DNA of 64,000 bases from Nitrospirota bacterium (GCA_030684575.1 JAUXVD010000021.1:92633-156632); one strand, 5' to 3'. Shown: positions 3,318-42,345, counted from the first letter of the stretch. Numbers and translations: made by a program. The notes: generated by a model from the sequence alone, not told the origin.

Positions 3318-3397
3318 GCCTGGTCGATCCTCGAGTGCGCGCGTCGAACGAGCACATTCCTATCGTGCGCGTTCCGCGAGCAGGAGGACGACCAGGC
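3318..3397 (+). repeat. foldback element, type B copy (B2); likely terminator-like hairpin 5 nt beyond the M20 peptidase stop
   Basis: Core GAGTGCGCGCGTCGAACGAGCACATTCCTATCGTGCGCGTTCCGCGAGCAG. Flanking arms GCCTGGTCGATCCTC / GAGGACGACCAGGC. Confidence 0.7.
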
Positions 3398-3401
3398 TAC
3401 C

Positions 3402-5380: not shown

Positions 5381-6306
5381 TGAAAACTCAAAAAATATTT
5401 ACTCCGGCACAAACGAGAATCGGATGGATCGGCACAGGCGTGATGGGATCGTCCATGTGCGGTCATCTACTGGCCGCGGGCTATACGGTAACCCTGCATA
5501 GCCGTACGAAAACCAAAGCCACAGCGCTGCTGGACCTCGGCGCAACGTGGGCCGAGAATCCGCGCGCAGTCGCCGCTGACTCGGATCTGCTGTTCACAAT
5601 GGTGGGATTCCCCCAGGACGTGCGGACCGTCTATCTCGGCGAAGAGGGAATCCTCGCCGGCGCACAACCAGGCACGGTGCTCGTCGATATGACGACGACG
5701 GACCCGGCCCTCAGCCGCGAAATCGCCGAACGTGCAACGGCCAAGGGGCTCTCAGCGATTGATGCTCCGGTGTCCGGTGGCGATGTGGGCGCGCGCAATG
5801 CCACCCTCTCGATCATGGTGGGAGGCAGCAACGAAACCGTGCAGGCCGTGATGCCGCTCTTCGAACTATTGGGAAAAAAGATCGTGCACCAGGGCGGGTC
5901 CGGCACCGGGCAACAGACGAAACTCTGTAACCAGATCGTAATCGCCGGCACGATGATCGGCGTCTGCGAGAGTCTGCTCTATGGCTACAAGGCAGGGCTC
6001 GACCTGAACAAGATGCTGGACTCCATCCGTGGTGGAGCCGCCGCCTGTTGGACGCTGGATCATCTCGCGCCTCGTATTCTGCAACGCAACTTCGATCCGG
6101 GATTTTTCGTCGAACATTTCGTCAAAGATATGGGCCTCGCGCTGGAGGAATCGAAACGGATGGGGATTGCCCTGCCAGGTCTCACCTTGGTACATCAGCT
6201 CTACAAGACCGTCCAACAGCTCGGGCATGGCAGGAGCGGAACCCACGCGCTCATCCTGGCCCTTGAAGACCTCAGCAACGTCCACGGGAATAGGACGCCG
6301 ACATGA
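5377..6306 (+). CDS. NAD(P)-dependent beta-hydroxyacid dehydrogenase (3-hydroxyisobutyrate dehydrogenase family)
   Basis: N-terminal Rossmann motif [30 protein letters not shown]. About 300 aa, with family-typical DAPVSGG. Confidence 0.8.
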
Positions 6307-7004
6307 ATGCTCCATCATACATCGCGCTCGCCCTCTCGTTGCTCCTCACTGGTTGTGCGAGCAGTCAGGGCCTGCACCTCGATTCTCTCCAACAGACGCT
6401 GCGCGACGAAGAGACTCGCTTCGTCGGGGCTCAGCCATCACCATCGGCGGTAAGCCCTCCGACCAGACAAGGTCCACTAAAATTGGGGATCTATGTTATG
6501 CCGACGGGATTTCTTCACCATGAATTCGAGTGGACCGATGCCGATCGGGAGTCCCTGCTGGCCTGGACCAACGAATTACAACGCGACCACCTCATCAGCG
6601 GCGCCTCCTTCCTCCACATCGCGTCGATCAAGGGAAACCAATTCGTACAGTTACGCGAATCCGCGATACGACAGGGCATAGACCTCCTGCTCATCGTGGA
6701 TGGCGCCGCGACCGTCGATCGTTATAACAACTACAAGGGCCCCTTATTGTACTGGACAATCCTCGGGGCCTACCTTGCCAACGGCACCCACAGCGATGCC
6801 CTCTGTCTCGTGCGAGCGGCCTTGTGGGATGTGCGTGGAGAAACCAAGCTGGCACAGGAAGAGGCGCAGGGATCGTCGAAGCTCGTCGGGCCCGCCACAC
6901 GAGTGGATGATCGCGATGGAGTCACCGCAGCACGCCGACAGGCGCTGACCGCACTGATGAGCAGACTGCGGGAATATTTTGCAAGGACCGGCAGCGGATA
7001 TTGA
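6303..7004 (+). CDS. hypothetical lipoprotein
   Basis: Lipobox LLLTGCAS near the N-terminus. ATGA overlap with the upstream gene. Confidence 0.6.
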
Positions 7005-7090
7005 CCGTGAAGGACATAACTGCCGCGTCTCACAACCCGTTGACGAAGGGAACTGGTGTGGCCCTCTCCCCTCGTCAGGTCAAGAGTGTA

Positions 7091-7552
7091 TTAGGCTCCG
7101 CTCTCTCTGACAGCAGCTAGGTGTTTGACGGCTTCACGCACGGCCGTTCTGGCTTTGATCGCCGGATTCAAACTCGCCCCCGGATCCACCCTGTCCCCCA
7201 ATTCCGCAACCCGTCGGCATTGCTTGATCGCCTCCAATAGGTAGGGCTGGGCTTCTTTGCCATGCGGATCGGTCGGAGGAAGGGACTTGAGGATTGTTTC
7301 TGCATGTTTACTGACCTCACCACAATGGTGGACGATCGCTTTGGTATCCCCCATCCCCCCGTGCGCCACCATTTCCTCGACGTCCTTGATCAAACCATCC
7401 GCTTCTTCTTGCAGCTTCGGTCTTGGGAGCTCGGACGCCAGGGAGACCTCCCCGGTCACAAGCGGTGGAAGCCATGTGGGAGATACAGCCCCCAACAGCA
7501 TGGCGGCGATCATCCCTACGTTGAGAGTCGGAATCGACCGTACCTTCACCAT
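7091..7552 (-). CDS. secreted helical protein, tentatively small-metal-binding-protein (SmbP)-like
   Basis: Signal-like N-terminus. His/Cys-containing helical segments VAHGGMGDTKAIVHHCGEVSKHAETI and REAVKHLAAV. Last gene of the MCO operon. The functional label is weak. Confidence 0.5.
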   Translation of the reverse strand: MVKVRSIPTLNVGMIAAMLLGAVSPTWLPPLVTGEVSLASELPRPKLQEEADGLIKDVEEMVAHGGMGDTKAIVHHCGEVSKHAETILKSLPPTDPHGKEAQPYLLEAIKQCRRVAELGDRVDPGASLNPAIKARTAVREAVKHLAAVRESGA

Positions 7553-7553
7553 C

Positions 7554-8060
7554 CTAATACCGTCCCTTCGGCTCTGCCAACGTTGTGGTCAATGTACGAT
7601 AGAGACGATGAAACTCGTCTGTCGTGAGATCGGGGCTCTGCAGTTGCGCAAGAGCGGCTTGGTTGATGGGAAACTCGACCGTGTCGTCGTAATTCGATGA
7701 GGCAATGGTCACAAAGCGAGGAGGAAAGAGCCGTTCAGGCAAGAGAATCCCTACGCCCAGATTGTACTTGAGAGCCAAACGAATCACTTCCCTGGCCCGC
7801 TCGGCCGGCACGTCCCGACCTAGGCCGATGTTCTGCGGCGGCTGGCCCAATCTGGCAAACTGAAAGTGAACATTCGTCAACCCTGCTTGGGCGAATTCCT
7901 CCTGTAACGTAGCCACCTGGCTCTTATACTGCTTGGCCAGTACCACCTCGACCCGACTCACCGAGAGAGCCGGCCTGTCCTCGGCACAGAGGGCGGGCAC
8001 AACCATCGTGGCGACAGAAACAGCGACCGCGAATGCATTCACATATCGATGCAGATTCAT
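7554..8060 (-). CDS. hypothetical secreted protein (MCO operon)
   Basis: Signal-like MNLHRYVNAFAVAVSVATMVVPALCA. 1-nt spacer to the next gene. No recognisable domain. Confidence 0.55.
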   Translation of the reverse strand: MNLHRYVNAFAVAVSVATMVVPALCAEDRPALSVSRVEVVLAKQYKSQVATLQEEFAQAGLTNVHFQFARLGQPPQNIGLGRDVPAERAREVIRLALKYNLGVGILLPERLFPPRFVTIASSNYDDTVEFPINQAALAQLQSPDLTTDEFHRLYRTLTTTLAEPKGRY

Positions 8061-8063
8061 GGC

Positions 8064-8840
8064 TTATTTCCCCTCAAAGGTAAAGCCAACCGACATGGTC
8101 CCATTGTCAGCCACCGTGATCGCTTGTTCCTTCTCTCCAAGAGTCGGGTGCCAGGCCTTGATGCGATAGGACCCTGGTGGGAGATCTTTGATGGCAAAGG
8201 TCCCCTCCATTCCGGTGATGGCATAGTAGGGATTCTCCACGGCAAGCCCATGCCCCTGCATATAAGGGTGCATCCCGCATTGCATGGTGATGCCACGACG
8301 GTTCCCGGTCAACCGGACGATGTCGCTGGTCCCGGCCTTGGTCAGGGCAGGCCGGTGAAACATGATGAAAATGTGTTCCCGTTCCCGTTCATAAAACTGC
8401 AGGTCATGCGATACCGAATCCAAGTTGACCACGCTCAGCGGATGTTCATTTCTCATGACAGAGACGAACGGCACGAATTGACAGATATTCGCCTCGAGTT
8501 TTGTCTCCTGAAACTCGAAGGGCTTCCCCTTTTCCACCCCCTCGATGGTGACAATCACGTCTTTCAGTCCCTGCTGTTCGCCAACGGCCACTTCGCGAAG
8601 GAGCCGATAGCCGGATCCGTCTGAGAGGGCGCCGCAGTAGGCACGATCATAATACCGGCGAAGTTCAAATCGCGTCGGCTGCGGTTGCTCACCGACAAAC
8701 CGCACGGTGCCCGTGACCGTAGCCCCGTTCGACACCGCTATTTCCTCGTAGGCTGATGCCGGAGCTGTATCCATCAAGGCGGCACTCAGAATCAGAGAAC
8801 TGAAGAAACAGGTCGCGAAGCCACTTGCACGTCCTGACAT
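8064..8840 (-). CDS. cupredoxin-like copper protein with carboxypeptidase-regulatory-like beta-sandwich
   Basis: ATG at 8840 preceded by GGGGTGG. Signal peptide present. Candidate type-1 Cu ligands SVSHDLQFY ... QCGMHPYMQGH (C-x2-H-x2-M). C-terminal GTFAIKDLPPGSYRIKAWHP resembles CarboxypepD_reg. Confidence 0.6.
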   Translation of the reverse strand: MSGRASGFATCFFSSLILSAALMDTAPASAYEEIAVSNGATVTGTVRFVGEQPQPTRFELRRYYDRAYCGALSDGSGYRLLREVAVGEQQGLKDVIVTIEGVEKGKPFEFQETKLEANICQFVPFVSVMRNEHPLSVVNLDSVSHDLQFYEREREHIFIMFHRPALTKAGTSDIVRLTGNRRGITMQCGMHPYMQGHGLAVENPYYAITGMEGTFAIKDLPPGSYRIKAWHPTLGEKEQAITVADNGTMSVGFTFEGK

Positions 8841-8968
8841 ATATACCACCCCTATAAAAATACATGGGGGAGCATGATGCTCCCCCATGGTCTGAGTGAT
8901 GTTGACCGGCCGGAATCTCTATTGGAGGCGCCCCTGCGTATTGAGCAAGGACGCCACCAACTTGTTAG

Positions 8969-11900
8969 TTACTGCCCGCCCATCGAGGTCCGCGAGATAC
9001 TCCCACCCCTATTTTCCTGATCCGCCGTCTTGACGGGCGGGACTTGAGGCGTCAATGGGAGAATGCGCTGATCCTCGACCGGAAGTACTTTGAAGAGGCC
9101 CCATTGCCCGGCATTCGCAAACGCCGGACGCTGGTTCTTCCACATATAGTCGCCGACGATTTTATTCGGTCCACCAGCGCCGCCTGTGAGATAGGCGTTG
9201 ATAACCTCGGATCCGCCGAACTCCATGGTGCTGACCTGGTCGGCACCCTGCATGTACGGCTCGTGTGGCCACTCATGGCCATCCACGGTAAACAACTGCA
9301 CCTGCTCGCTGAATGCCCCGAGCACGTGAACCGCCACCGGGTCTCCCACGTGCGCCTGCAAGAGCGGCGTGGAAGGCGTATCTCCGGCCTTCACGCAACT
9401 GAACACTTCGGAGATTTCACAGCCCTTTTCGATCCGCCAGGCGGTCGGCTCCGACCGGTAATTGACCGCCGTGATGCCGGCCACCTGCTGGATGTAGGGC
9501 ATGAAGCTGACGCCCACGATGTTATCCTCGTCCTGGAACATCAACGAGAAATCGCGGTAGTTCTTCCGGTTATCATTGCCGGGAATCGTCCGATCCACGA
9601 GCACGTCGGCGCGCCAGCTGCTCTTCATCGTGATGTCGGTGCCGGTCACCGGGTCGCGGTAGCGCGATCCCTTCGGACCGACAATGATGGAACCAAACAG
9701 ACCGTTCCGTGGATTCTCGACCACGTTACCCCAATCCTGAATGAGGGCGGCCAATTCTCCGTACTCCGGATGCGCGTAGTACGTGTAGGTCTTGCTCTGG
9801 CCAGGAGCGATCGTTTGATCGCCCGGATTGTTGCCGACATTGGCACCGAACGAATCTTTCGGATCGAACGCCATCATATCGACGTGGAATCCGGCTCGTT
9901 CCTTAGCCATCTCATTTTTCAGATTCACCTTTACGCAATCCCCAACGTTGACATGCAGGGTCAGCGGACTCGGCCTCAACTCCCCGGCCTTCACCCGACC
10001 CCGATCCTCGTCGAGTACGTACATCTTGCCCTGTTCGTTCCCGAAGACCATCTTCCGTTCGAGATCGACTTCCATCGTACCGGGTGTTCCTTCATGGTAC
10101 CGGATGTTCTGATCGATCGCCGACACGTTGAAGCTCTTCACCGGCGCATCCGCCGGGCAGACCGACGGGGCAGACTTTTGAATCTGCTCGCGGCTCGGCA
10201 AGGGCTTCAGATCCCCTTGCAGTTCATCGAAAACCCGGAAGAGGCCCCAACTGCCTTCCGCAAAGTGCGAGGCACGGCCACTGTAATAGAGATAGTCGCC
10301 TGCCTGCTTTTGCGGACCACCGGCTGCTGGAATCGCCGGGTCGTAGCGCTCTCCGATCGCCAAGTGAATCGTGCTTCGCGGCATGGCCATGATGCCGTAC
10401 CGTTCCATCGGGAACCAGTGGCCCGTCACGTGCCACGTATGGACTTCATTGGCGGAACCGACGAGTGCACGAACCAGAATCGGATCGCCGAGATAGGCCC
10501 GCAGCAACGGCGTGCCAGGATCTCCGTGAATACCGGACACAAACAGCTTCGACGGATCAGGATTGTTGGCCAAACGCACACTCAACGGCTCGACGCGCAT
10601 GCTGTAGCCGCTGCCCGTCGTCGCCTCTCCGCCATTCAGAAACGTCATGGCCGATTTGTTAATGCGCTCCGGGAACTGATGCGACGGAGGCCCGTCGACG
10701 GTCGTCGCCCCCATTCTAGCTTGGGGATTGTCGGTGCTGATGAGCTCCGCCGTCCGCGCATTGCTGTCCATGATATGCATCATGACCTCGCGGAAGCTCC
10801 CACGGATATGGGCCGACACCGGTTCCAGGGTATGAATATCGGCGATAGGACCGCTCCGGATTTCTTTCCCGGTCACTGGATCGTGATAGGTCGAGCGCGG
10901 CGGCTCGGTAATGAAGGCAGAAAACAGTCCATGTCCCCAGGTATCGGTCCCGAAGACATGGTCATGCCAGTAGACTGTCCCGAAATCGGAATCCACATAC
11001 CAGCGTTCGCGGATGAACTCGACACTCGCAATGTCCTTCTTCTTATGCGCGTACTTGAGCGGCGCATCGAAGGTGATCGTATTGCCCTTGATGCTCTTGA
11101 TCCGCACCACCTCAAAATACTTGGGATCGTCCATCCCCACGCCGAGTTCGATGTTCTCGTGGAACTTGGATGGATCACTCACGGTGATGCTGCGCGCGCC
11201 GGCCTTGGTATCCGCCGTCAGCACCGTGTTGCCCGGCAGCGGCATCCCCTTGTCCGGTTGCGGGTCTTCCAACATCGTGAAGGCCCGCAGCGACATGTCG
11301 TAGGAGAACCCAATCGTCGGTCCATCGGACGCGCTGGTGTCGAACTGGAAGAAATGCGGATGGAGATTGATCTTATTCGCCCATCCCGTCCTCGCATCGT
11401 CGGGAATTTCGTTCTTGAATATGATATCGACGCAATCATACACATTGCCGCGGATAACTAGCGGCAACTGCTTCTTGGGGTTCTTGCGAACCTCTTCCTC
11501 TTCTTCATGCAACACATAGATCATGCCGATCGGATCGACAATCGCAGGAGAGTTTTTAGTCGCCGGCTTGAGCGTGATCGGAAGCGTAATGGAATGAGTC
11601 GTGTAGAACTTCCGTGGAGAATGTTCCGGACACAAACTCCAAGGCCCCTGCTCGCCTGGTCGAGCCTGCTCCGTACTCTTTGTTCCATCTTCACGCACAT
11701 GGAAAGGCTCCAACCACGGTGCTCCACCATGATTCGGCGCGAACGGAGGGCGCTTTCCAAGATGTGGACGCAGCCAGGGAAATGCCAGCTTCCCGGTCTG
11801 CGGATCGAAGGTAATCGCCGGACGCTTCAACGGAGTCGGTGACACATAGTCCGGCCACTTGTGCGGCGTCTCCGGCTCGTTGAGCGCCAGTTGGCCCTCC

Positions 11901-13708
11901 CACTTCCAGTTCACGACCGTCGCATCGTGCGCCTGGGCCTGCTTCACCTGATCTTCCGTCTTGCCCGGCAAGCCCTGCGGCGGCAGCATGTACTCGACCC
12001 AATCCTTGATCGAAACCTTCACTGGGTTGGACTTCCAATCCGTCTTATCCTTGGTGATCTCATACTTCTTTCCGCCGTACCAATCCACCGTGGTACCGAC
12101 CAACTTGTCCGAACCGACTGCAAGCTTGATCTTCCCCTTACGATCCGGCAGCTCGACGAGCGGCTTCATCACATCGGTCTGGAACCCGGTCGACTGCAAC
12201 GTGTTGTACACACGCCAGAACCCCCACATCCCCGTCACATAATGCTGCGGGATATGGCAGTGAAACACGAACTCGCCGGCCAGGGCCTGCAAACCACCGG
12301 ACCCGCCCTCGGTCACTTCATCGTAAATCTCGGACGGCCCAATAGATTGCACATCCAGCCGATCCGACACATCGCTGATCGGCGGAAATTTCACCGGGCC
12401 ATTCTTGGAGAGTGTCGGATCGAGCTTGCTCGTGCCGGGCTGTCTGGCCCAGCGGATCGATCCACCATGCAGGTGGTGCGAATGTACGATTTCCGAACCG
12501 CCGATCATCCGGAACTTGGCGGGATCGCCCAGATAGGATCGCGGAACCGTCGTCGCCGGATCGCCGAAGGTGTAGGACCCGTAACCCTGCGATTCATCCG
12601 CAAACCCGACCAAATGCGCCTGTAACTCCAACCGTTCGCCGTGCGGTTCGCTCCGGTAATTCAGCAAGCGAGCGGCAGGTCGATAGGTGTCCGTATGGGC
12701 GTCACGCTGCGGCAGCATATCGCCTTTGCGGTCCAGAAGACGGAAGGTTTCGTCGCCCGCCTCATGATAGAAAATGACGAATTCACGGAAGTCGGAACCG
12801 TTCGCGACATCGATCATGGCCTCCCACCCGCTCTTCATCTCTTCCGCCGTAAAGGGGCTGAGATGGCGGGATCCCCGCGGCTCGACGACGACCGAGCCCA
12901 GCAAGCCCAAGGAATATTGATCCCTGCTCGCGTAGCTATGGAACGCGCGACCGCCTTCCTGCAGATCGATGGGGATGAACCATTCGAATTCCCCGCTCTT
13001 CCCTGAAGACACCAGGGCTTCAGGATTATTGGTGGTCGCCGGCTTGCCGGTGCTCGCCACGAGCATCTGGGAGCCGTTGATGATCATGTTCGTCGGCTCG
13101 TCGGGAATCTGATTCCGCAACGTGATCCGCAGGCAATCTCCCTGATTCGCCCGAATCACGAGCGGCTGAATGAGATCGCCCTGCAAACCATTCGAGACGG
13201 CGCCGCCAGCAAAGGTCGGATCCTCACTCTCCCGGGCAGCCTTGTTCTTCGTTTCTTCCTCGCGCACCCCTGCCACATTCTCCGTCAACACATACATGAA
13301 CCCCGGATAGAAATCGCCGAATCGATTGACGGTGATTTCGACATTCATCGCCGTGACATCATAGGCTCGGACAGGAGCGGTCACTGGACAGCGAGCGCCC
13401 TGCGTCACTTGCACCTTGTCCGGGTCCTCAGCCACGAGCAACACACCCTGCTGCATGGCATGGGCGCCGGCCCCCTGGAACGGTCCTTTCGTCTTGACCT
13501 CCCGCTCGATCTGCTGAACGGCCTTCGACATCTTGTCCTGCATCATCGGACCGGCAGCCTGATGGACGACCGTCGCCTCCGCTGTCTTGTCCGCATGCAT
13601 CACAGCCCGGTGCTGATGAGGGGTCGCTTCTGCCCATGTCTGCGTGACGCCCAAGACGGCGGCAAGCAACGCGACTCCTGCCTGACTCATAATCTTTCTA
13701 CTGGTCAT
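8969..13708 (-). CDS. giant six-domain multicopper oxidase (MnxG/ceruloplasmin-like architecture)
   Basis: ATG 13708 preceded by AGGAGGGG. Motifs: HSHHLH (nt 12467-12484), HCHIPQHYVTGM (12227-12262), LHPHF (11351-11365), YWHDH (10958-10972). Three tandem ~500-aa units share GDC[LV]x[IV]x[LF][RK]N, GL[FL]Gxx[IV]xxP and WG[LF][FW][RK]V segments. Confidence 0.85.
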   Translation of the reverse strand: MTSRKIMSQAGVALLAAVLGVTQTWAEATPHQHRAVMHADKTAEATVVHQAAGPMMQDKMSKAVQQIEREVKTKGPFQGAGAHAMQQGVLLVAEDPDKVQVTQGARCPVTAPVRAYDVTAMNVEITVNRFGDFYPGFMYVLTENVAGVREEETKNKAARESEDPTFAGGAVSNGLQGDLIQPLVIRANQGDCLRITLRNQIPDEPTNMIINGSQMLVASTGKPATTNNPEALVSSGKSGEFEWFIPIDLQEGGRAFHSYASRDQYSLGLLGSVVVEPRGSRHLSPFTAEEMKSGWEAMIDVANGSDFREFVIFYHEAGDETFRLLDRKGDMLPQRDAHTDTYRPAARLLNYRSEPHGERLELQAHLVGFADESQGYGSYTFGDPATTVPRSYLGDPAKFRMIGGSEIVHSHHLHGGSIRWARQPGTSKLDPTLSKNGPVKFPPISDVSDRLDVQSIGPSEIYDEVTEGGSGGLQALAGEFVFHCHIPQHYVTGMWGFWRVYNTLQSTGFQTDVMKPLVELPDRKGKIKLAVGSDKLVGTTVDWYGGKKYEITKDKTDWKSNPVKVSIKDWVEYMLPPQGLPGKTEDQVKQAQAHDATVVNWKWEGQLALNEPETPHKWPDYVSPTPLKRPAITFDPQTGKLAFPWLRPHLGKRPPFAPNHGGAPWLEPFHVREDGTKSTEQARPGEQGPWSLCPEHSPRKFYTTHSITLPITLKPATKNSPAIVDPIGMIYVLHEEEEEVRKNPKKQLPLVIRGNVYDCVDIIFKNEIPDDARTGWANKINLHPHFFQFDTSASDGPTIGFSYDMSLRAFTMLEDPQPDKGMPLPGNTVLTADTKAGARSITVSDPSKFHENIELGVGMDDPKYFEVVRIKSIKGNTITFDAPLKYAHKKKDIASVEFIRERWYVDSDFGTVYWHDHVFGTDTWGHGLFSAFITEPPRSTYHDPVTGKEIRSGPIADIHTLEPVSAHIRGSFREVMMHIMDSNARTAELISTDNPQARMGATTVDGPPSHQFPERINKSAMTFLNGGEATTGSGYSMRVEPLSVRLANNPDPSKLFVSGIHGDPGTPLLRAYLGDPILVRALVGSANEVHTWHVTGHWFPMERYGIMAMPRSTIHLAIGERYDPAIPAAGGPQKQAGDYLYYSGRASHFAEGSWGLFRVFDELQGDLKPLPSREQIQKSAPSVCPADAPVKSFNVSAIDQNIRYHEGTPGTMEVDLERKMVFGNEQGKMYVLDEDRGRVKAGELRPSPLTLHVNVGDCVKVNLKNEMAKERAGFHVDMMAFDPKDSFGANVGNNPGDQTIAPGQSKTYTYYAHPEYGELAALIQDWGNVVENPRNGLFGSIIVGPKGSRYRDPVTGTDITMKSSWRADVLVDRTIPGNDNRKNYRDFSLMFQDEDNIVGVSFMPYIQQVAGITAVNYRSEPTAWRIEKGCEISEVFSCVKAGDTPSTPLLQAHVGDPVAVHVLGAFSEQVQLFTVDGHEWPHEPYMQGADQVSTMEFGGSEVINAYLTGGAGGPNKIVGDYMWKNQRPAFANAGQWGLFKVLPVEDQRILPLTPQVPPVKTADQENRGGSISRTSMGGQ

Positions 13709-13993
13709 TCTCTTCCCCTCCTGAACAACATCCGTTGAATACCGTTCATTCACAGCAGCTCAATGCCTTCAACGACGGCGCGCTCAAGCACACTCGCGTC
13801 CTGTCTACTAAAAATAGTCCGGCGAAGGTTCCGCTCTTCGCGGTTGCGATTTCAGGAGGCCAGTCCATTCATGCCGCAGCCTTCACCGGACAGATTTTGA
13901 ATGCTCATTCACACAACAAATCAGACGGTGAGTGAGCAAGTCCCGTTCCATCGAAGGCTGGTGAAGCCGGAGAATGGTTTTCTCAACGATTCA

Positions 13994-32048: not shown

Positions 32049-32510
32049 ATGGATCGAACCTGGAAGGTCTATGGAATAGTCGTCGTCCTTGCGGGACTGC
32101 TGCTCTGTGGTCTCACCGGTTGCCCCAACGTCGACTCGTCGCCTGAGCCAACTGTACCATCTGCCTCCGTCTCATCCGTTCAATCCCCAGGGCCGGCTCT
32201 TCGCGATGCCACACCACCTCTCGATCGGCTGCATCGAACCGAGCAGGCCCCGCCACAAAAAGCCCGAGACCTCCTAGCGGCCATTCGGCAACATGAGGGC
32301 AAGGCCCTCCCCGGCTATATCGGAAGCGGGGCATTTCAGAATCGTGAGAAACGACTGCCTCGCGGTCGTTATCGAGAGTACGATGTGAATCCCAAGGTAC
32401 GCGGCCGCTCGCGGGATGCGGAGCGAATCGTCATCGAACAAGATACCGGGAAGGCCTACTACACGGATGATCATTACCGAACGTTCACACCGTTGAATGG
32501 AACACCATGA
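32049..32510 (+). CDS. barnase/RNase Sa-family secreted ribonuclease (lipoprotein)
   Basis: Lipobox LTGCPN. C-terminal RLPRGRYREYDVNP...RGRSRDAERIVIEQDTGKAYYTDDHYRTFTPL resembles the guanyl-specific microbial RNase fold. Confidence 0.75.
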   Translation: MDRTWKVYGIVVVLAGLLLCGLTGCPNVDSSPEPTVPSASVSSVQSPGPALRDATPPLDRLHRTEQAPPQKARDLLAAIRQHEGKALPGYIGSGAFQNREKRLPRGRYREYDVNPKVRGRSRDAERIVIEQDTGKAYYTDDHYRTFTPLNGTP

Positions 32511-33022
32511 CATCGAAACTCACATTGCCTGCCTATCTTCAGTCAACGAAGGCCCCCTGGACCTCATTGCTCATCGTAAACGCAGGACAACGCGCTGAAT
32601 CGCTGATGCATCCACCAACCGGATTTGCCTTGAAAGTCATCAAAGGCGCCAAGTGTCAAACCACCGACGGCCTGTTGCGCGAATGGGCCAGAGCCTTGGA
32701 TTTTCCGGACTACTTTGGGCACAACTGGGATGCCCTTGAGGAATGTCTGGCCGACCTAGAATGGCTGCCAGCCAAGGGCTATATCCTCCTCATCACGGAT
32801 GCGGCGCAGGTGTTGCCAGACGACGACGAAGAATACGCAACCTTGCTTGAGGTGTTGCGAGATGCGGGAGAGGCCTGGGGGAACGGACAAGCGGGAATGG
32901 GCCAGCCACGAGCGACGCCGTTTCACGTACTGTTCGCTGTATCGGAACGGGAAAAAAACAAACGGGCCCATTGGGGAATGACAGACGTCACGACACAACC
33001 GATTCGGAAGCCGGGAACCTAA
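32507..33022 (+). CDS. barstar-family ribonuclease inhibitor
   Basis: ATGA overlap with the RNase gene. DGLLREWARALDFPDYFGHNWDALEECLADLEWLP resembles the barstar core. Confidence 0.75.
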   Translation: MTSKLTLPAYLQSTKAPWTSLLIVNAGQRAESLMHPPTGFALKVIKGAKCQTTDGLLREWARALDFPDYFGHNWDALEECLADLEWLPAKGYILLITDAAQVLPDDDEEYATLLEVLRDAGEAWGNGQAGMGQPRATPFHVLFAVSEREKNKRAHWGMTDVTTQPIRKPGT

Positions 33023-35415: not shown

Positions 35416-36066
35416 ATGGAACGTTTCCGACAAATATTGCGCGTCGTGAGACATGCCCCCTGCAGCTGTCTGCTGGTCTCCCTCTGGACCATACTCTGCT
35501 TGGTCGCCATACCTCATGAGGGGCAGACTCAGTCAACCACCGCGCCGCCCTCCTCATTACCCACCACTCCGTTATCACCCGATGCCACCACCACCGACCC
35601 ACGCTCCTCCTGCGATCTCTGTTGGAAGCCTGAACCACGAGCTGGGAGTACCGTCCGTCCCCATCGACCTCACCGTGAGAAGGGACTCCATCCTCATAAG
35701 AAGCCCAAAGGACTACGACGATCCAGCAGCAAAAGCTTCCGATCGATGCTTCGTCGGCAAGCCCCCACATCGCTGAGTGGTGTCGAGCGCACAGTCGACG
35801 GTCGGCAAGTCCACGTGGTCGACGGTGACACCTTTCGCTATGGGACCGAGCGCGTCAGACTCCGGGGCATCGACACGCCTGAACTCAACGAGCCAGGCGG
35901 ACAGGGAGCCAGACTACGGCTGATAGAATTGCTTCGCAATGGACCGGTCCGCATCGTCCCGCATGGGCGAGATCTCTATGATCGCCTCGTGGCCGATGTC
36001 TTCGTGAACGGGCAGAATGTGGCTGAGACGCTTCGGGTAGATGGTTTCGCAAAGCCCCACTTTTAA
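35416..36066 (+). CDS. thermonuclease (staphylococcal nuclease, SNase-like)
   Basis: VVDGDTFRYGTERVRLRGIDTPE ... DLYDRLVADVFVNGQNVAETLRVDGFA. N-terminal signal/low-complexity linker. Confidence 0.75.
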   Translation: MERFRQILRVVRHAPCSCLLVSLWTILCLVAIPHEGQTQSTTAPPSSLPTTPLSPDATTTDPRSSCDLCWKPEPRAGSTVRPHRPHREKGLHPHKKPKGLRRSSSKSFRSMLRRQAPTSLSGVERTVDGRQVHVVDGDTFRYGTERVRLRGIDTPELNEPGGQGARLRLIELLRNGPVRIVPHGRDLYDRLVADVFVNGQNVAETLRVDGFAKPHF

Positions 36067-36671
36067 GCCTCACAAGATCCAGCCAAAGACCCTTGGACTT
36101 ATGTTGTCACCTGATAGGGAGACCTAGGTGAATTATCCGAGCATTGCAATGCAAGAAGAATCTTTCAGGGGCTAGGTCCGACAACGATGGTGTTCGAAAA
36201 AAGTGATTCCCACAGATGTGCTCTAACCCTGTCCAGACTCCAGGCATAGAGGAGATGTATCATGTAACAACATAAATCTGGCATGGGCTGAGCGCTGTGG
36301 CCAACGACGCGCTGATTGCGCCGGTGTGAGGCGTCATCTACAAAGCAATCGAGCCGGCTCCGGCTTCTTTCGACGCCTCGATTGATTCGCCGCCGCCAGG
36401 AAGAAAACTAAGAGGTCAGACCCCTTCATCTCGCGATCTGAGGATTAGGAATATCGCGTGACGTCATAATTCTACGACATCTCTATATTGATCGTGATAG
36501 AGACCACGGGCCGCGTTACCAGTATAAGAGGATCCTTGGACTTCTCTCCGGACTCGTGCCAGGATATTGAATGGCTCACATCCTATCCGCAGAATATTCG
36601 ACATTCTGTCGCTTCCACGATGGTGCTAAGAGACCGGAGACAGGTTTACCAGCCGGATCCCATCCAGCCCC

Positions 36672-37826
36672 ATGACCCCCGGATCTTTCTACTCGAACCT
36701 GCGCAGTTTTTCCGAATTCCGAGAGCTTGCACACGACCGCCATTTCTCACCTATTCCGCACGACTGGTTTATTGTAGTCACCGACGTGAAGGAATCTACG
36801 AAAGCGATTTGCGACGGACGATACAAAGACGTGAACACGCTCGGGGCAGCGTCAATTGCCACAACATACAAGGCGATGGAGGGCGTAGACTTCCCGTACG
36901 ATTTCGCCGGGGACGGGGCGACGCTGGCCGTTCCACCTCATCGAATTACGGCTGTGCTCGACGCATTGGCCGCCTTGAAAGCATTGGCACAGGCACAATT
37001 CAATTTGGATTTGCGCGTGGGGAGGGTCCTGGTTTCCGAGCTGATCGGTGAAGGAGTGCGGGTCGATGTGGCCAAATTTGAGTTGGCGTCAGGAAAATGC
37101 ATCGCGATTTTTCAAGGTGGTGGATTGGTATTGGCTGAAAAGAAAGTGAAACACGAGCCCGCAGCCTATGAAGTCAAGGCCTCAACGCAGAAAGACGCAA
37201 CACTGGACAATCTTTCATGTCGTTGGAATGCCATTCCCAACCGCCACGGCCGCGTATTGTCCCTGCTTGTCCTGGTGCGTTTCGGACGGAGCAAGAAGGT
37301 CTACCACGACGTGCTCGAAGAGCTCGATCGCATTCTCGATGGAGGATTGGACCAAGCGAACCCGGTCAACGTACCGTCCATGACCTACAAATCCTTCTCC
37401 GAATGCGTTGCCGACGAACGGCGGTACCACTGGTCATGGATCTCATTTGCCTTCCTCGCCAGGCTCCTGGAGATCTTCCTCGCCGTCCTGATTTTCAAGT
37501 TCAAGGTTGATCCGTTGGTGATGGACCCCGCTCACTACAAAAATGCCATGCGTATCCACTCGGACTATCGAAAATTCGCCGACGTGCTTCGCGTCGTCAT
37601 CGACTGCTCTCAAAAGAATGTGGATGACATACGCGCCTATCTTGCGACCCTCTATGAAAAAGGGGAGTTGTATTACGGCCTCCATGAGTCCGATAGCTCG
37701 CTCATGACCTGTTACGTCAACAGCACCGACGACGGCCAACACGTCCACTTTATTGACGGAGGGGAAGGCGGGTATGCCATGGCATCGGTCCAACTAAAAA
37801 AACAAATCAACTCCAAGGGTTTGTGA
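36672..37826 (+). CDS. DUF3095 family protein (nucleotide-cyclase-like N-terminal domain)
   Basis: FYSNLRSFSEFRELAHDRHFSPIPHDWFIVVTDVKESTKAICDGRYKDVN...FAGDGATLAVP matches my memory of DUF3095. The two Asp-containing strands resemble class III cyclase / GGDEF palm metal sites. Confidence 0.65.
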   Translation: MTPGSFYSNLRSFSEFRELAHDRHFSPIPHDWFIVVTDVKESTKAICDGRYKDVNTLGAASIATTYKAMEGVDFPYDFAGDGATLAVPPHRITAVLDALAALKALAQAQFNLDLRVGRVLVSELIGEGVRVDVAKFELASGKCIAIFQGGGLVLAEKKVKHEPAAYEVKASTQKDATLDNLSCRWNAIPNRHGRVLSLLVLVRFGRSKKVYHDVLEELDRILDGGLDQANPVNVPSMTYKSFSECVADERRYHWSWISFAFLARLLEIFLAVLIFKFKVDPLVMDPAHYKNAMRIHSDYRKFADVLRVVIDCSQKNVDDIRAYLATLYEKGELYYGLHESDSSLMTCYVNSTDDGQHVHFIDGGEGGYAMASVQLKKQINSKGL

Positions 37827-38052
37827 CAGGCTCCCACCAGGATCGAGCAGGATGAACAACCACTCTTCACTGATTGATGTAAGAAGAGGAATGGGCGAAG
37901 CCCGTCGACTCGACGACCATCGGTCCGATCACCACGCGATAAGCCCGCAAATCACGAGATGCAGTGGAGCGACGCCGGCATCGCTGATGCCGACTGCCGA
38001 TCGAATCCGGTAATTAGGACAGCACGAGAGAGTGAGGAAGGTTACGAGTGAG

Positions 38053-38166
38053 TTACGGCTTCTTCTTGTTCTTATCAGACGGGTTCTCGGAAAACAGCAA
38101 CCATCCGAGTACGATGAATCCTATCGCGACACCGGTGATGGCGAGCCAGGTTCCGAGCTTGTCCAT
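38053..38166 (-). CDS. 37-aa single-TM micro-protein (not in ORF track)
   Basis: Hand translation gives MDKLGTWLAITGVAIGFIVLGWLLFSENPSDKNKKKP. Its ATG directly follows the ybgC-like stop codon, with no spacer. Confidence 0.5.
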   Translation of the reverse strand: MDKLGTWLAITGVAIGFIVLGWLLFSENPSDKNKKKP

Positions 38167-38568
38167 TTAATGACTCCTTGTGGGACCAGACTGTAGTGCG
38201 GCGACCATCGCCTTGTCGAGGCGCTTCACCTTCCCGTTGCCATCTGTTGCCGCCAGCCGTGCCGAGCCTTCGACGATCACTCGCTGACTTTCCCGTTCTC
38301 TAATCATGTGCGAACAGGTGAAGGAGGCTGCCGTCACGTCGGAGACGACCGTCTCGATGACCAGCGTATCGCCATAACGAGCGGAAGACCGGTAATCAAC
38401 CTCGGCATGTACCACGACAAATACCGTGCCTTCTTTCATAAGCCCGGCCACTGACAATCCTCGTTCTTCAAGATACTGTGTCCGCGCCCGCTCAAAGTAT
38501 TTGAGATAGTTCGCGTAATACACGACCCCGCCGCAATCGGTATCCTCGTAGTAGATCCTGACTTCCAT
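38167..38568 (-). CDS. YbgC/4HBT-family acyl-CoA thioesterase
   Basis: MEVRIYYEDTDCGGVVYYANYLKYFERARTQYLEERG is the classic hotdog-fold YbgC N-terminus. Confidence 0.85.
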   Translation of the reverse strand: MEVRIYYEDTDCGGVVYYANYLKYFERARTQYLEERGLSVAGLMKEGTVFVVVHAEVDYRSSARYGDTLVIETVVSDVTAASFTCSHMIRERESQRVIVEGSARLAATDGNGKVKRLDKAMVAALQSGPTRSH

Positions 38569-39873
38569 CTACAGAGCCAAGACTGGAAACTTCGGGAGCG
38601 ACGCCTCATGCACCCCTGTGAGTCTCAACGCGACGTCATACAACTGCTGGACCCGCTCGGCCTTGACCGGCTCGAAGCCATGACCGAGGACGGCATGGCT
38701 GGCCGCGTCGAGCAGCGGCTTCATCGTTGGCCATTCACGCAAAAAGGCTTGGCCCATCTGATCGCCCAATCCGGCCAGCGTACGAAACTGTGCCTGCAAC
38801 GGCAGTTTGTACTTGCCGTCGAGATCTTCCACCCAGCACGTCCGGCAGGTTTCTCGTAGCGCCTCAGGCAATTGCTCCGGCAGCACGTCCCAGGTTTTGA
38901 TCTGGTGCTGCTTGAACAGTTGTCGTTGGGCAAAGGCTTCGAGCGCACGAACCAACGAGACCATCGCGATCTCCGGATCATGCGCGCCACGCAGTCGCCG
39001 ACCGGCATGGGCCAGCAAATCGATAGGCTGCATGTCTTTGACCGGAGCAGGATCGAGCACGAGCCTTTCCAGAAATCCCGCATTCGCTTTGATCGGGGGA
39101 AGGACCGCGTTGAGTCCTGGCGGTCCGCCCCACAATGCCGCCATTTCGAAAGCCTTCACGGCATGCTTCAGCTTCTCCCAGGCCTGACGGTACTGGAATC
39201 GCTCCCAGAGATCGTAGCCATCTGCCAGATCTGCAAAGGCGCGATAGAGCGGCTTCTGCCCCCCGCTCACCCTAGCTTCGAGCTCGCGAAACAGCTTCGC
39301 CGATGCGGCAAACAATCCCCGATTGAACAGCTCGCAGCCCTCGCGGCGCGAGACCGAGGCCGCTTCATCCCAGGGATTGCCCTGCGTCCAGAGAAACGGC
39401 TGTCCGGCGATATCGATCCGATCCTCTTCCTGTCCCTCTCGCGCCGGCACGAGCGAGACGATCCGCGAACTGAGAGACAAGGTGGCCAGCGTGAGCGCAC
39501 CCGCCATGGCCGGAGTCGCCCCGGTTACATCGACGACGAGCTCGCCTGGCTGCACATCCCACGTATGCAACATCTCAGGGAGCGCCTGGGCGAGCGCCCG
39601 ATAACAGCCGACAAAGTCGTCGGTCTCCGCCAGGACCACCCAATCCCACCGTCTGGGCATATGTTCAATTTTCGGTTGGACGTCGGCTTCGACGAGGGCT
39701 TTCGCCCCTTCCGGCAACACAAAACAAAGCGAGTCCGGCTGCAGACGATTAATCGAGTAGACCGCCGCCGCCGTATGGCCGGTGAGGGAGATCACTAACG
39801 CTTTCACTGGTTGGTCATGCGCCATTGGGCGCGGACTATACCACAGGACGGCGCAAATTCCTTCCGGCTTCAT
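38569..39873 (-). CDS. orphan CARF-domain protein, Cas02710 (TIGR02710)-like
   Basis: VKALVISLTGHTAAAVYSI (beta1). VVDVTGATPAMAGALTLA (compare the CARF DxTGGTKxM motif). DLLAHAGRRLRGAHDPEIAMVSLVRALEAFAQRQL and C-terminal SHAVLGHGFEPV resemble the family. Start ambiguous (39915, 39873 or 39825). The stop TAG abuts the ybgC-like ATG. Confidence 0.6.
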   Translation of the reverse strand: MKPEGICAVLWYSPRPMAHDQPVKALVISLTGHTAAAVYSINRLQPDSLCFVLPEGAKALVEADVQPKIEHMPRRWDWVVLAETDDFVGCYRALAQALPEMLHTWDVQPGELVVDVTGATPAMAGALTLATLSLSSRIVSLVPAREGQEEDRIDIAGQPFLWTQGNPWDEAASVSRREGCELFNRGLFAASAKLFRELEARVSGGQKPLYRAFADLADGYDLWERFQYRQAWEKLKHAVKAFEMAALWGGPPGLNAVLPPIKANAGFLERLVLDPAPVKDMQPIDLLAHAGRRLRGAHDPEIAMVSLVRALEAFAQRQLFKQHQIKTWDVLPEQLPEALRETCRTCWVEDLDGKYKLPLQAQFRTLAGLGDQMGQAFLREWPTMKPLLDAASHAVLGHGFEPVKAERVQQLYDVALRLTGVHEASLPKFPVLAL

Positions 39874-40037
39874 GCCCTGCCTTCGCCGAAACGGCTTCGC
39901 GCAGGCAGGTCGCATCGCTCAAGGCCCCACCCTCCGCATCGGCCGTTCGACCGCCCCATCAGTCTTCGCCTCTCTGAGCCATCGATTCATGATCACGCAA
40001 CGTGCGTTCTGCTTGACGGTCTCCGGAAACACGCTTA

Positions 40038-40163
40038 GCAGGCTGTTGACAAAGGCCGCCAGCGGCGTTCTCGCGGCGCGCAGAGGCTCAACGTACTGCG
40101 GAGAGTACGCTTCGCCTCTCCGTTTGCTGCGGCCTTGCTGGACGGCCTTTCTGAACAGCCTGC
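40038..40163 (-). repeat. family C element, copy 6 (opposite orientation)
   Basis: GCAGGCTGTTGACAAAGGCCGCCAGCGGCGTTCTCG...GTACTGCGGAGAGTAC...CGGCCTTTCTGAACAGCCTGC. Preceded by TAG although no credible gene ends there. Confidence 0.8.
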
Positions 40164-40300
40164 GACGACGTCTGCCAGCAGCTGCAACTGTTCTGACATG
40201 CGTATCTCTGCAGTGGCTTGGTAGTTTGTGAACAACCTGTTAGACTTTCCTGACGCGCGACATCCTCACAACTCTTTCGAATACTCAATGAGGTCTCTCG

Positions 40301-40735
40301 ATGATCTGGTGGTATTGGATGTTCTTCGGCCTCGTCCTGCTCGGCCTCGAAATGGCCACGCCCGGGGGCTTCTATATTATCTTCTTCGGACTGGCGGCTC
40401 TGATCGTCGGCAGTCTCACCGGCCTGGGATTCGCCCAAGCGGAATGGCTCCAGTGGTTCTTGTTCTCAAGTCTCGCGATCCTATCCTTGCTGGTGTTCCG
40501 CGGACCGTTATTGGCCTGGATCAACAAACAGGACAAGGACCTGCCTGCCGTGGACTCACTCGCGGGAGAAAGCGCGATCCCCATTGAAGACTTGCTGCCA
40601 GGCGCTACCGGCAAGGCTGAGCTGCGCGGCACCTCCTGGACTGCCCACAATGCCGGGACGGTCCCTTTGACAAAGGGTCAGCGATGCACCGTCAAGCGGG
40701 TCGAGGGACTCACCATCTGGATATCGGCGGATTAA
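40301..40735 (+). CDS. NfeD family membrane protein
   Basis: Three N-terminal TM helices plus a C-terminal OB-like GKAELRGTSWTAHN...VKRVEGLTIWI. Upstream of the SPFH gene. Confidence 0.8.
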   Translation: MIWWYWMFFGLVLLGLEMATPGGFYIIFFGLAALIVGSLTGLGFAQAEWLQWFLFSSLAILSLLVFRGPLLAWINKQDKDLPAVDSLAGESAIPIEDLLPGATGKAELRGTSWTAHNAGTVPLTKGQRCTVKRVEGLTIWISAD

Positions 40736-40769
40736 GCAGGGGAAACCCGGAACGAACACGAAGGAGTGA

Positions 40770-41711
40770 ATGATGACCGAAGGACTCTTTATCATGCTGG
40801 TCTTAGCCTTGCTTGTGTTGATCGTCGTCGGCAAGACCGCCGTCGTTGTGCCACAGCAAAGCGCCTATGTGGTCGAGCGACTCGGCAAATACGCCGCCTC
40901 ACTAGATGCAGGGTTTCATATCCTCCTCCCCTTCATCGACCGTATTCGCTATAAACATTCGCTCAAGGAAACGGCCATCGACATCCCCGAGCAGGTCTGT
41001 ATTACCCGCGATAACGTGCAGGTGTCGGTGGACGGCATCTTGTACCTCAAGGTCTTAAACCCTCAGCGCGCGTCGTACGGCATCAGCGACTATAATTTTG
41101 CCCTGATCCAACTGGCGCAGACCACGTTGCGAAGCGAGATGGGCAAGATTGAACTCGACCGGACATTCGAAGAACGGACGAACATCAATATCCAGGTCGT
41201 CAACGAACTCGACAAGGCCTCAGATCCCTGGGGCGTCAAAGTCCTCCGGTACGAAATCAAGAACATCACTCCCCCGAAGGGCGTGTTGGACGCCATGGAA
41301 AAGCAGATGCGGGCGGAGCGGGAGAAGCGGGCGGTGATTCTCACGTCCGAAGGCGAACGCGACGCAGCCATCAACCAGGCCGAGGGCGAGAAGCAACAAG
41401 TGATCAAAGCCTCCGAGGCCAAGAAACAACAACAGATCAACGAGGCAGAGGGGGCGGCATCGGCCATCCTCGCCATTGCGCAGGCCACGGCTGAGGGACT
41501 GCGCAAGGTCGCAGAGACGATCCAGATCCCGGGCGGTCAGGAAGCCGTTCAGCTGCGCGTGGCAGAACAGTACATCACCAAGTTCGGCGAGTTGGCAAAG
41601 ACGACCAACACGTTGATTCTGCCTGCGACGGTCTCCGATGTCGGCTCCATGATCGCCTTGGCGATGAGCGCCATCCGGCAGACCGGTCCCCTCACCACCA
41701 TCAAGTCATAA
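40770..41711 (+). CDS. SPFH/Band 7 (stomatin-like) protein
   Basis: N-terminal TM. VPQQSAYVVERLGKY...GFHILLPFIDRI...DNVQVSVDGILYLKV typical of QmcA/stomatin. Confidence 0.88.
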   Translation: MMTEGLFIMLVLALLVLIVVGKTAVVVPQQSAYVVERLGKYAASLDAGFHILLPFIDRIRYKHSLKETAIDIPEQVCITRDNVQVSVDGILYLKVLNPQRASYGISDYNFALIQLAQTTLRSEMGKIELDRTFEERTNINIQVVNELDKASDPWGVKVLRYEIKNITPPKGVLDAMEKQMRAEREKRAVILTSEGERDAAINQAEGEKQQVIKASEAKKQQQINEAEGAASAILAIAQATAEGLRKVAETIQIPGGQEAVQLRVAEQYITKFGELAKTTNTLILPATVSDVGSMIALAMSAIRQTGPLTTIKS

Positions 41712-41766
41712 CTGGTCGATACGTCACGTTTGACAGGTGACGGAGGGTTGCCTAGAATCGCGTCAC

Positions 41767-42345
41767 ATGAAAGATCTTATACTCAGTGCCTTTGCCGACA
41801 GCGCCGCCGTCAAGCAACAGTTCGCGCGCGACTATGCCGATCGTATCGCACAAGTCGCCACGTTAATGGTTGCGGCCTTCCGCCAAGGACGCAAAGTCTT
41901 ATTGTTCGGCAACGGTGGCAGCGCCACGGATGCGGCCCATCTCGCAGCTGAATTCGTCGGGCGCTATAAACGCGAGCGGGCTCCCCTTCCGGCCATCGCG
42001 CTGGCCACCGACATCGCCGCCATCACCTGCATCGCCAACGACTACGGCTTCGAGGAACTCTTTGCCCGGCAAGTGCGCGCCCATGGCCAACAAGGCGACA
42101 TCGCCATTGCCATCAGCACCAGCGGTAATTCACCGAACGTCTTGAAGGGTGTGGAGGCCGCGCGGGCTTGTGGCCTCACGACCATCGGGTGGACTGGTGG
42201 AACCGGTGGAAAACTGGCCGGGCTGGTGGAATACCCCTTCGTCGTGCCTTCGACCGTGACGGCCCGCATTCAAGAAAGTCACATCACGCTCGGCCACGTC
42301 CTGTGTGAACTCATTGAGGAACAGCTCCTTGGCAAAGACTCCTGA
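41767..42345 (+). CDS. gmhA: phosphoheptose isomerase (SIS domain)
   Basis: LLFGNGGSATDAAHLAAEFVGRY and ISTSGNSPNV motifs. ATG at 41767. Confidence 0.85.
   Translation: MKDLILSAFADSAAVKQQFARDYADRIAQVATLMVAAFRQGRKVLLFGNGGSATDAAHLAAEFVGRYKRERAPLPAIALATDIAAITCIANDYGFEELFARQVRAHGQQGDIAIAISTSGNSPNVLKGVEAARACGLTTIGWTGGTGGKLAGLVEYPFVVPSTVTARIQESHITLGHVLCELIEEQLLGKDS

Follow-up and report, generated by a model that had tools for sequence, protein, structure and literature searches.

A Csm6-like CARF protein at a fixed site in Nitrospira and a predicted cyclase-like DUF3095 gene that is probably its neighbour by coincidence

Introduction

A 64,000-nt stretch of DNA from a Nitrospirota bacterium (GCA_030684575.1 JAUXVD010000021.1:92633-156632; hereafter the window, with coordinates counted from its start) carries a DUF3095 gene whose product resembles nucleotide cyclases. 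Facing it, in convergent orientation, is a minus-strand unit encoding a CARF protein, a thioesterase and a small membrane peptide. Do these genes form a signalling module? An earlier note, made from the window alone, had proposed that DUF3095 makes a ligand read by the CARF protein. The same note had cautioned that the adjacency may be coincidental, and had named a lack of neighbourhood association in other genomes as grounds for giving the idea up. The locus resembles CBASS, Pycsar and type III cyclic oligoadenylate (cOA) signalling in that a predicted cyclase-like gene lies less than 250 nt from a CARF-type sensor gene. Were the module real, it would represent a new kind of system, but our comparison of related loci does not bear it out.

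Our data point instead, with good confidence, to two unrelated units that adjoin by a coincidence of position. The component families are already annotated in public records. What appears to be new is a Csm6 derivative that has lost a lysine and an arginine central to Csm6 function and is yet fixed in position throughout the sampled Nitrospira. The assignment of DUF3095 at the level of predicted fold also appears to be new. Both advances are variants of known families and not a new system.

Results and Discussion

DUF3095 and the CARF family do not co-occur

Neighbourhoods were compared from both sides. The DUF3095-centred sample consisted of 80 loci drawn from many phyla, each taken with as much as 10 kb of flank to either side of the gene, and amounted to 1.33 Mb. 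The CARF-centred sample included the best 80 of 247 further metagenome contigs, at 83-97% CARF identity, and about 130 related loci were compared overall. A CARF-centred locus was scored as informative if at least 1 kb of contig lay beyond its thioesterase gene, which was the case for 50 loci, all Nitrospira.

The window CARF protein belongs to the TIGR02710 family. A profile built from 68 diverse members of this family was run with hmmsearch against all open reading frames (ORFs) of the 80 DUF3095 loci and gave no match at E<=1. Likewise, phmmer with the window CARF protein itself returned no match in these loci. Neighbour clustering revealed no conserved neighbour of DUF3095, the best cluster occurring in 13 of the 80 loci, a median of 5.5 kb away. 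From the other side, DUF3095 was found in none of the 50 informative loci. These include L088, L089 and L091, whose CARF proteins are 97%, 96% and 94% identical to that of the window. L086 (93% CARF identity), which falls outside the 50 with about 470 nt following its thioesterase gene, has no DUF3095 there either. Other Nitrospirota carry DUF3095 elsewhere: one copy (P0015) lies beside xseAB and another (in L035) has no CARF gene within 10 kb. Finally, the CARF gene is under purifying selection also where its locus is without DUF3095.

With co-occurrence at 0 of 80 and 0 of 50, the two families have no neighbourhood association, and the module hypothesis fails for this reason. The caution about coincidental adjacency was well placed.

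A phmmer search of the 80 DUF3095 loci with the window thioesterase, peptide and secreted nuclease gave two thioesterase matches only, one 9 kb from DUF3095 and one adjacent but weak (L078, E 8e-4). We treated both as chance.

DUF3095 lies in a hypervariable slot

Comparison by blastn with L089, L091, L137 and L003 placed the DUF3095 gene in a variable segment at 36102..38049. Its breakpoints are at 36101, just past the stop codon of a secreted SNase-like nuclease gene, and at 38050, the stop of the peptide gene; homology to L089 picks up again at 36101. In other strains the same slot measures 0.96-3.9 kb and holds different cargo. Many loci carry a 147-aa ORF with a YcxB-like ORF, while others hold HAD and APH genes with a 251-aa ORF, or a Gp49/HigB-like toxin with an HNH endonuclease (homing-endonuclease repeats) and a TraB/GumN family protein. 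In sister strains the slot spans 5820-8381 (L089), 9358-11522 (L088) and 10557-13707 (L003). The slot behaves as a small genomic hot spot in Nitrospira, and DUF3095 is its cargo in this strain.

The left flank of the slot, the SNase-like gene (35416..36066, plus strand; Pfam SNase, E 2.3e-8), is conserved, and many Nitrospira loci have it together with HemL, which lies across the slot from it. It is a real gene, and the suspicion that it is unrelated was correct, as it is a slot flank that stands outside any module.

Two candidate mobile-element signatures around the window DUF3095 gene were set aside as too weak to interpret: a 32-nt inverted repeat, 72% complementary (36076-36107 and 37802-37833), and a 20-nt direct repeat. 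Across 36000-40400, consensus scans for promoters and terminators scored like shuffled controls.

The CARF protein has the Csm6 fold and has lost key Csm6 residues

The CARF gene lies on the minus strand at 38569..39825, within an ORF that extends to 39915. Most homologues begin at a methionine equivalent to M31 (MA[QH]DQPVK...), so the likely product has 418 aa. The CARF and TIGR02710 identity given to this ORF in the earlier note stands, but its full length gives way to the later start. The ORF scores 124.2 bits against TIGR02710 (NCBIfam "CRISPR-associated CARF protein"; curated cut-off 83.9) and matches the Pfam families Csm6_6H and Cas_Cas02710, the latter being the Csm6 HEPN domain. Its AlphaFold2 model has a predicted local distance difference test score (pLDDT) of 94.6. 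Foldseek aligned this model over its full length with Csm6 of Thermus thermophilus (TtCsm6; TTHB152; PDB 5FSH, 8JBB and 8JH1) as the top match (E 1.8e-13), followed by Enterococcus italicus Csm6 and Streptococcus thermophilus Csm6'. The structural comparison that had been suggested for this ORF recovers the three-domain Csm6 fold, and window protein and TtCsm6 share the same CARF-6H-HEPN architecture.

Assignment of functional residues was facilitated by the 68-member family profile, which matches TtCsm6 at E 3e-21. It aligns DyTgGTkvMs to DLTSGTKAMS and aRNnSiLaHGf to GRNSALLVHGF of TtCsm6, and covers K137, R415, N416 and H422. The family consensus at these motifs is DxTGGTKxMS and RNxSILAHG, and the residue is present in 90% or more of the sequences at each of the R, N and H columns. 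In the window protein the two motifs are DVTGATPAMA and DAASHAVLGHG. Unlike TtCsm6, it therefore carries P105 for K137, A103 for G135, A375 for R415 and S376 for N416; H382, the equivalent of H422, is kept. Within an alignment of 16 Nitrospira sequences, alanine occupies the HEPN arginine column in 16 of 16. In the five nearest relatives outside the group at 83-97% identity, the residue at the arginine position is A, A, Q, C or W; in P0241, P0249 and P0251, three of these five, the histidine is gone too.

The consequences of such changes are known for TtCsm6. The K137A variant neither binds cyclic tetraadenylate (cA4) nor shows RNase activation, and R415A, N416A or H422A each abolish RNase activity (PMC10897365). 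The R-X4-6-H motif was given as conserved in "Csm6 (Cas_Cas02710)" by Anantharaman et al. 2013 (PMC3710099), and CARF fusions to HEPN-like domains without R-X4-6-H have been noted previously (Domainator paper, PMC11754643). By analogy with the TtCsm6 mutants, the Nitrospira protein has probably lost cA4 binding and RNase activity and is no longer a cOA-activated RNase. Because the CARF lysine and the HEPN arginine are missing, one should not take for granted that it couples a sensor to an effector. More generally, a TIGR02710 annotation is not always evidence of cOA signalling.

The gene is not decaying. Within Nitrospira its ratio of nonsynonymous to synonymous substitution rates (dN/dS) is 0.08-0.12, like that of the neighbouring SIS gene.

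The Csm6-like gene is fixed among housekeeping genes

The best 120 protein clusters related to the Csm6-like protein are 81-96% identical to it, and their named sources are all Nitrospira or Nitrospirota. Every Nitrospira contig sampled has the gene at the same chromosomal position, at 83-97% identity. In loci with enough flank it is divergent from nfeD, SPFH/Band 7, SIS and deoxyhypusine-synthase-like genes. Within the window, the NfeD, SPFH/Band 7 and GmhA-like SIS genes lie at 40301..42345 on the plus strand (NfeD and Band 7 by Pfam; SIS_2 via orthologues in related loci). The order NfeD-Band 7-SIS is the same in L001, L003, L085, L086 and L170, and L171 keeps SIS alone. Relatives at 46-48% CARF identity (L170 and L171) retain both the CARF-thioesterase pair and the divergent SIS gene, which are not retained in the more distant relatives examined.

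This setting differs from that of canonical family members. For example, a TIGR02710 protein with intact motifs (P0406) adjoins Cas6, Cas10/Csm1, Csm2 and RAMP genes. TtCsm6 is likewise unlike the window protein, which has no adjacent type III genes, holds a fixed and not a sporadic position, and is paired with a thioesterase. Our Pfam scan of the window covered 37 ORFs, including every plausible gene of at least 280 aa, and found no cas family besides the Csm6-like protein itself. Tandem Repeats Finder detected no CRISPR-like array in the 64 kb, and the annotated genes of the related loci inspected include no cas family. The earlier statement that the window is free of cas genes and CRISPR arrays thus holds, the Csm6-like gene itself aside. 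The other Pfam families returned by the scan are housekeeping ones, among them Mfd, PFK, pyruvate kinase, MurJ, a TonB-dependent receptor, M16 peptidases, a two-component system and HemL. The Nitrospiraceae protein is a CRISPR-independent Csm6 derivative, fixed among housekeeping genes. In the nitrite-oxidising Nitrospira sampled, where the gene for this Csm6-type CARF-HEPN protein is fixed and strongly conserved, it would be a clear example of how a CRISPR accessory can be co-opted for work outside defence.

A distant member of the family, P0249, which has lost both arginine and histidine, occurs in another non-CRISPR context. In L175 (7330-9242) its gene overlaps a PF04199 'Cyclase' gene by one base (spans 7330-8001 and 8001-9242), and an alcohol dehydrogenase gene comes next.

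The thioesterase and the membrane peptide

Directly downstream of the Csm6-like gene, a 133-aa acyl-CoA thioesterase of the YbgC/FadM type (4HBT hotdog) is encoded on the minus strand at 38167..38568. It exceeds the TIGR00051 cut-off (95.1 bits against 68.7) and falls below that of the YbgC equivalog TIGR02799 (112 bits against 141). The description as a YbgC hotdog thioesterase is accordingly right for the YbgC/FadM subfamily. Escherichia coli YbgC, a Tol-Pal-associated acyl-CoA thioesterase, belongs to the same subfamily. Unlike in E. coli, no tolQ lies immediately downstream of the window gene, since the peptide gene and then the convergent DUF3095 gene come after it.

The thioesterase gene is found downstream of the CARF gene in 67 of 88 loci. 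All but two of the remaining 21 (L120 and L158) have less than 2.3 kb of contig past the CARF gene. Its dN/dS is 0.05-0.08. Across the 67 loci the gap between the two genes ranges from 3 to 1802 nt (median 442), and opposite-strand genes are frequent inside it. The zero spacers described for the three minus-strand genes are thus real in the window, but the one that separates the CARF gene from the thioesterase gene is specific to this lineage.

About half of Nitrospira loci have 0.4-1.8 kb between the Csm6-like and thioesterase genes, where the window lineage has none. The inserts contain an opposite-strand Adhesin_E-like lipoprotein gene and/or a 23S rRNA intervening-sequence gene (IVP, four-helix bundle); examples are L100 6318-6719 (minus strand) and L088 8171-8530 (plus strand).

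Abutting the thioesterase gene is the gene for a 37-aa single-pass membrane peptide (38053..38166, minus strand). This small ORF proved to be a real gene: tblastn places it directly after the thioesterase gene in most Nitrospira loci (33-97% identity), and the gene calls of L004, L085 and L086 include it. Its stop codon lies 226 nt from that of the convergent DUF3095 gene. The peptide exists as two sharply different allelic types among Nitrospira, at 83-97% and 33-61% identity to the window copy, a division that parallels how the SNase and DinB genes diverge.

DUF3095 is a widespread family with a predicted cyclase-like palm

The DUF3095 gene (36672..37826, plus strand) is an accessory gene that encodes a 384-aa protein, predicted to be a stand-alone palm-domain enzyme. 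The label DUF3095 was correct, with an end-to-end Pfam match to PF11294 (E 4.8e-108; 362 bits against a gathering cut-off of 22.2; residues 6-376 on positions 1-378 of 378). The two strands singled out in the earlier note, WFIVVTDVKEST and FAGDGATLAVP, are both present in this ORF. The family is large, with 1068 protein clusters at E<=1e-5, and a relative is encoded on at least 565 contigs of the GTDB species-representative genome collection. It occurs in Verrucomicrobiota, Bdellovibrionota, Myxococcota, Planctomycetota, Alpha- and Gammaproteobacteria and Nitrospirota, with cross-phylum identity of about 50%. DUF3095 is under purifying selection (dN/dS 0.10-0.15). The literature searched held no mention of it (PF11294, IPR021445).

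An AlphaFold2 model built on 30 sequences reached a pLDDT of 88 and a predicted template-modelling score of 0.85. Its top 50 Foldseek matches in the PDB were 43 class III cyclases and 7 Cas10/Csm1 proteins. The best E was 1.8e-4, most probabilities were 0.9-1.0, and TM-scores were 0.4-0.5, or about 0.5 when normalised to single-domain targets. The cyclases include human soluble adenylyl cyclase (soluble adenylyl cyclase being pseudo-heterodimeric; PDB 4CLP), AC5/AC8/AC9, soluble guanylate cyclase, Cya2, Rv1900c, CyaC, CyaB, light-regulated cyclases and Pycsar-type cUMP synthases. Residues 33-120 of the model, in its N-terminal half, run beta1-alpha1-alpha2-beta2-beta3-alpha3-beta4, the order of a class III cyclase or GGDEF palm.

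The motifs fit this topology. Across 30 diverse family sequences D38, T43 and G80-D81-G82 are invariant. D38, within D-V-K-G-S-T, ends the strand 33-39 (beta1), and D81 sits between strands 76-78 and 82-87, in the beta2-beta3 hairpin. The two aspartates are separated by 43 residues, compared with 44 in the class III alignment (VDIVGFT ... GDG). DUF3095 thus shares both predicted topology and Asp positions with class III cyclases and Cas10 palms. Unlike class III cyclases, its residues 150-384 have invariants of their own (D311, H357, H359 and D362), unmatched to cyclase motifs.

Sequence profiles gave no corresponding signal. A PDB sequence search with the DUF3095 profile returned nothing meaningful, and a lenient Pfam scan of 30 members found no Guanylate_cyc (PF00211) or GGDEF match. 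In hhalign, DUF3095 compared with a 32-sequence class III alignment, both at full length and trimmed to the N-terminal part, reached probabilities of 0.1-0.4%, a comparison of limited power as both alignments are shallow (effective number of sequences about 2.8). Of the cyclase-like reading put forward earlier, the fold and the two Asp motifs are borne out, and the expected profile match to the cyclase superfamily was not found. Support for a cyclase-like palm protein is confined to the predicted fold and the motifs. DUF3095 would most likely be a solitary enzyme that carries out a nucleotidyl-transfer or cyclisation reaction by itself. Its predicted fold and intact metal-binding motifs make it reasonable to consider DUF3095 a candidate new family of nucleotidyl cyclases or transferases.

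Two long members were also seen. A protein of the diatom Seminavis robusta annotated with DUF3095 (P0114) has 648 aa and a metagenome protein (P0094) has 671 aa, far longer than the usual length of about 385 aa. This suggests fusions to other domains, which might hint at function.

An old arrangement shared by two outgroup lineages

Several observations weigh against a purely coincidental adjacency, or against parts of the account given so far. DUF3095 is also convergent to the peptide-thioesterase-CARF unit in L085 and L168, at 71% and 63% DUF3095 identity. The recurrence implies that the arrangement is old, and in L085 it has outlasted a rearrangement on its other side. Our presence calls concern the locus, and strains without DUF3095 there could encode it elsewhere in the genome. 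The Csm6-like protein keeps D99, T101, G102, T104, M107 and the HEPN histidine, such that a remodelled pocket or non-canonical catalysis (H377...H382) may exist. Finally, comparisons with the Guanylate_cyc profile found nothing and sequence profiles were negative throughout, so the cyclase link of DUF3095 rests on a predicted structure and two short motifs.

L085 and L168 hold the two closest relatives of the window DUF3095 and are the only other Nitrospiraceae lineages that share the arrangement. Relative to the window, L085 is 82% identical in Band 7 (91-99% inside the main Nitrospira cluster) and 67% in the CARF protein (84-97%). L168, a 2.8-kb contig, is 74% identical in the thioesterase (82-96%). 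Both are outgroups to the main Nitrospira cluster. Synonymous divergence (dS) between L085 and the window is 1.2 for DUF3095 and 1.6-1.8 for flanking genes, which is of the same order. Most simply, a single old insertion at this site passed down vertically and was then lost several times over. As one ancestral event, it says nothing independent about function.

Recent horizontal acquisition of DUF3095 was considered and rejected, given the similar dS of flanking genes to L085 and a GC content at third codon positions (0.64 in the window) inside the range of neighbouring genes.

In L085 two direct copies of the peptide gene's 3' part flank the DUF3095 gene (1768-1867 and 3363-3462; 100 nt, 79% identical). 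The upstream one forms part of a fused 60-aa ORF that ends ...WLAITGVAIGFIVL.... These repeats may be an insertion footprint or a deletion substrate, and as direct repeats they would favour loss of DUF3095. No convincing counterpart was found in the window.

Explanations for the locus

The explanation that best accommodates the observed gene identities, folds, motif losses, purifying selection and absent co-occurrence is one in which DUF3095 and the minus-strand unit have nothing to do with each other. A Csm6-derived gene would be held at a fixed site in Nitrospiraceae, divergent from SIS (with nfeD and SPFH/Band 7 ahead in most lineages). It would be followed by the YbgC-type thioesterase gene and, in Nitrospira, also by the 37-aa membrane peptide gene. 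The Csm6-like protein would most likely survive as an exapted, non-catalytic regulator that binds a ligand or RNA. Any functional tie would be to the thioesterase, not to DUF3095.

One alternative refines this explanation and does not compete with it. The Csm6-like protein could regulate or partner the thioesterase, with a pocket that might sense an adenine-containing metabolite such as CoA or acyl-CoA, and DUF3095 would be irrelevant. CARF domains are known to bind ligands that contain adenylate, purifying selection acts on both genes, and the thioesterase is the sole downstream gene that stays with the CARF gene from 97% to 46% identity. Against this, intervals of 0.4-1.8 kb separate the two genes in about half of Nitrospira loci. 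They are often split by opposite-strand genes, so co-transcription is not general, and the distant Arg-less relative P0249 has no thioesterase. We regard this partnership as a tentative possibility.

It is also conceivable, though unlikely, that the Csm6-like protein is still a defence effector, activated in trans by cOA from a type III CRISPR-Cas system or another source elsewhere in the genome. Canonical family members are type III accessories, and the window protein exceeds the TIGR02710 cut-off, shows the complete Csm6 fold and keeps the HEPN histidine with most of CARF motif II. However, the cA4-binding lysine and the catalytic arginine are both replaced in every aligned Nitrospira sequence. 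The fixed position, 83-97% identity and housekeeping neighbours are unlike sporadic defence genes, and no cas gene was found in the 64 kb or in any flank examined.

The original proposal, a CRISPR-independent module in which DUF3095 makes a nucleotide messenger, the CARF protein senses it and the thioesterase and/or peptide is the output, is very improbable: it can draw on the cyclase-like fold and invariant Asp motifs, the recurrence in L085 and L168, a CARF pocket that is altered and not destroyed (and might be retuned to another ligand) and the conserved CARF-thioesterase pair, but neither family has the other as a neighbour (0 of 80 and 0 of 50, even at 94-97% CARF identity), purifying selection on the CARF gene continues at loci that lack DUF3095, the two genes converge with 226 nt between them, the slot carries unrelated cargo in sister strains, opposite-strand genes split the CARF and thioesterase genes in many Nitrospira, and the three shared cases are explained by descent, with L085 and L168 as outgroups in which all flanking genes diverge in parallel. 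Unlike in CBASS, Pycsar and type III systems, the sensor lies among housekeeping genes, the predicted cyclase gene is convergent to it with no cross-genome co-occurrence, and the effector has no catalytic arginine.

A variant that we consider a long shot holds that the Nitrospiraceae protein was exapted as a sensor and that its CARF pocket, now remodelled, reads a non-cOA nucleotide, ancestrally made by the adjoining DUF3095. Just as doubtful is its corollary, that the ancestral arrangement persists in the window, L085 and L168, and that lineages without DUF3095 use another source. If true, it would amount to a housekeeping, CRISPR-independent CARF signalling pathway and would give DUF3095 a first function.

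Other features of the window

Three further features of the window lie apart from the DUF3095 and Csm6-like genes. Just upstream of hemL, a barnase-barstar toxin/immunity pair occupies 32049-33022 on the plus strand, in which a barnase-like secreted ribonuclease gene (PF00545, E 4e-13) overlaps the barstar gene (PF01337, E 1e-27) by 4 nt. The minus-strand ORF at 8969-13753 encodes 1594 aa, only about 320 of which match multicopper-oxidase domains (Cu-oxidase_3 and Cu-oxidase_2). Lastly, a plus-strand gene at 1028-2185 consists of about seven tandem repeats of 108 nt (36 aa), 71% matching, with a unit that looks Sel1-like by eye.

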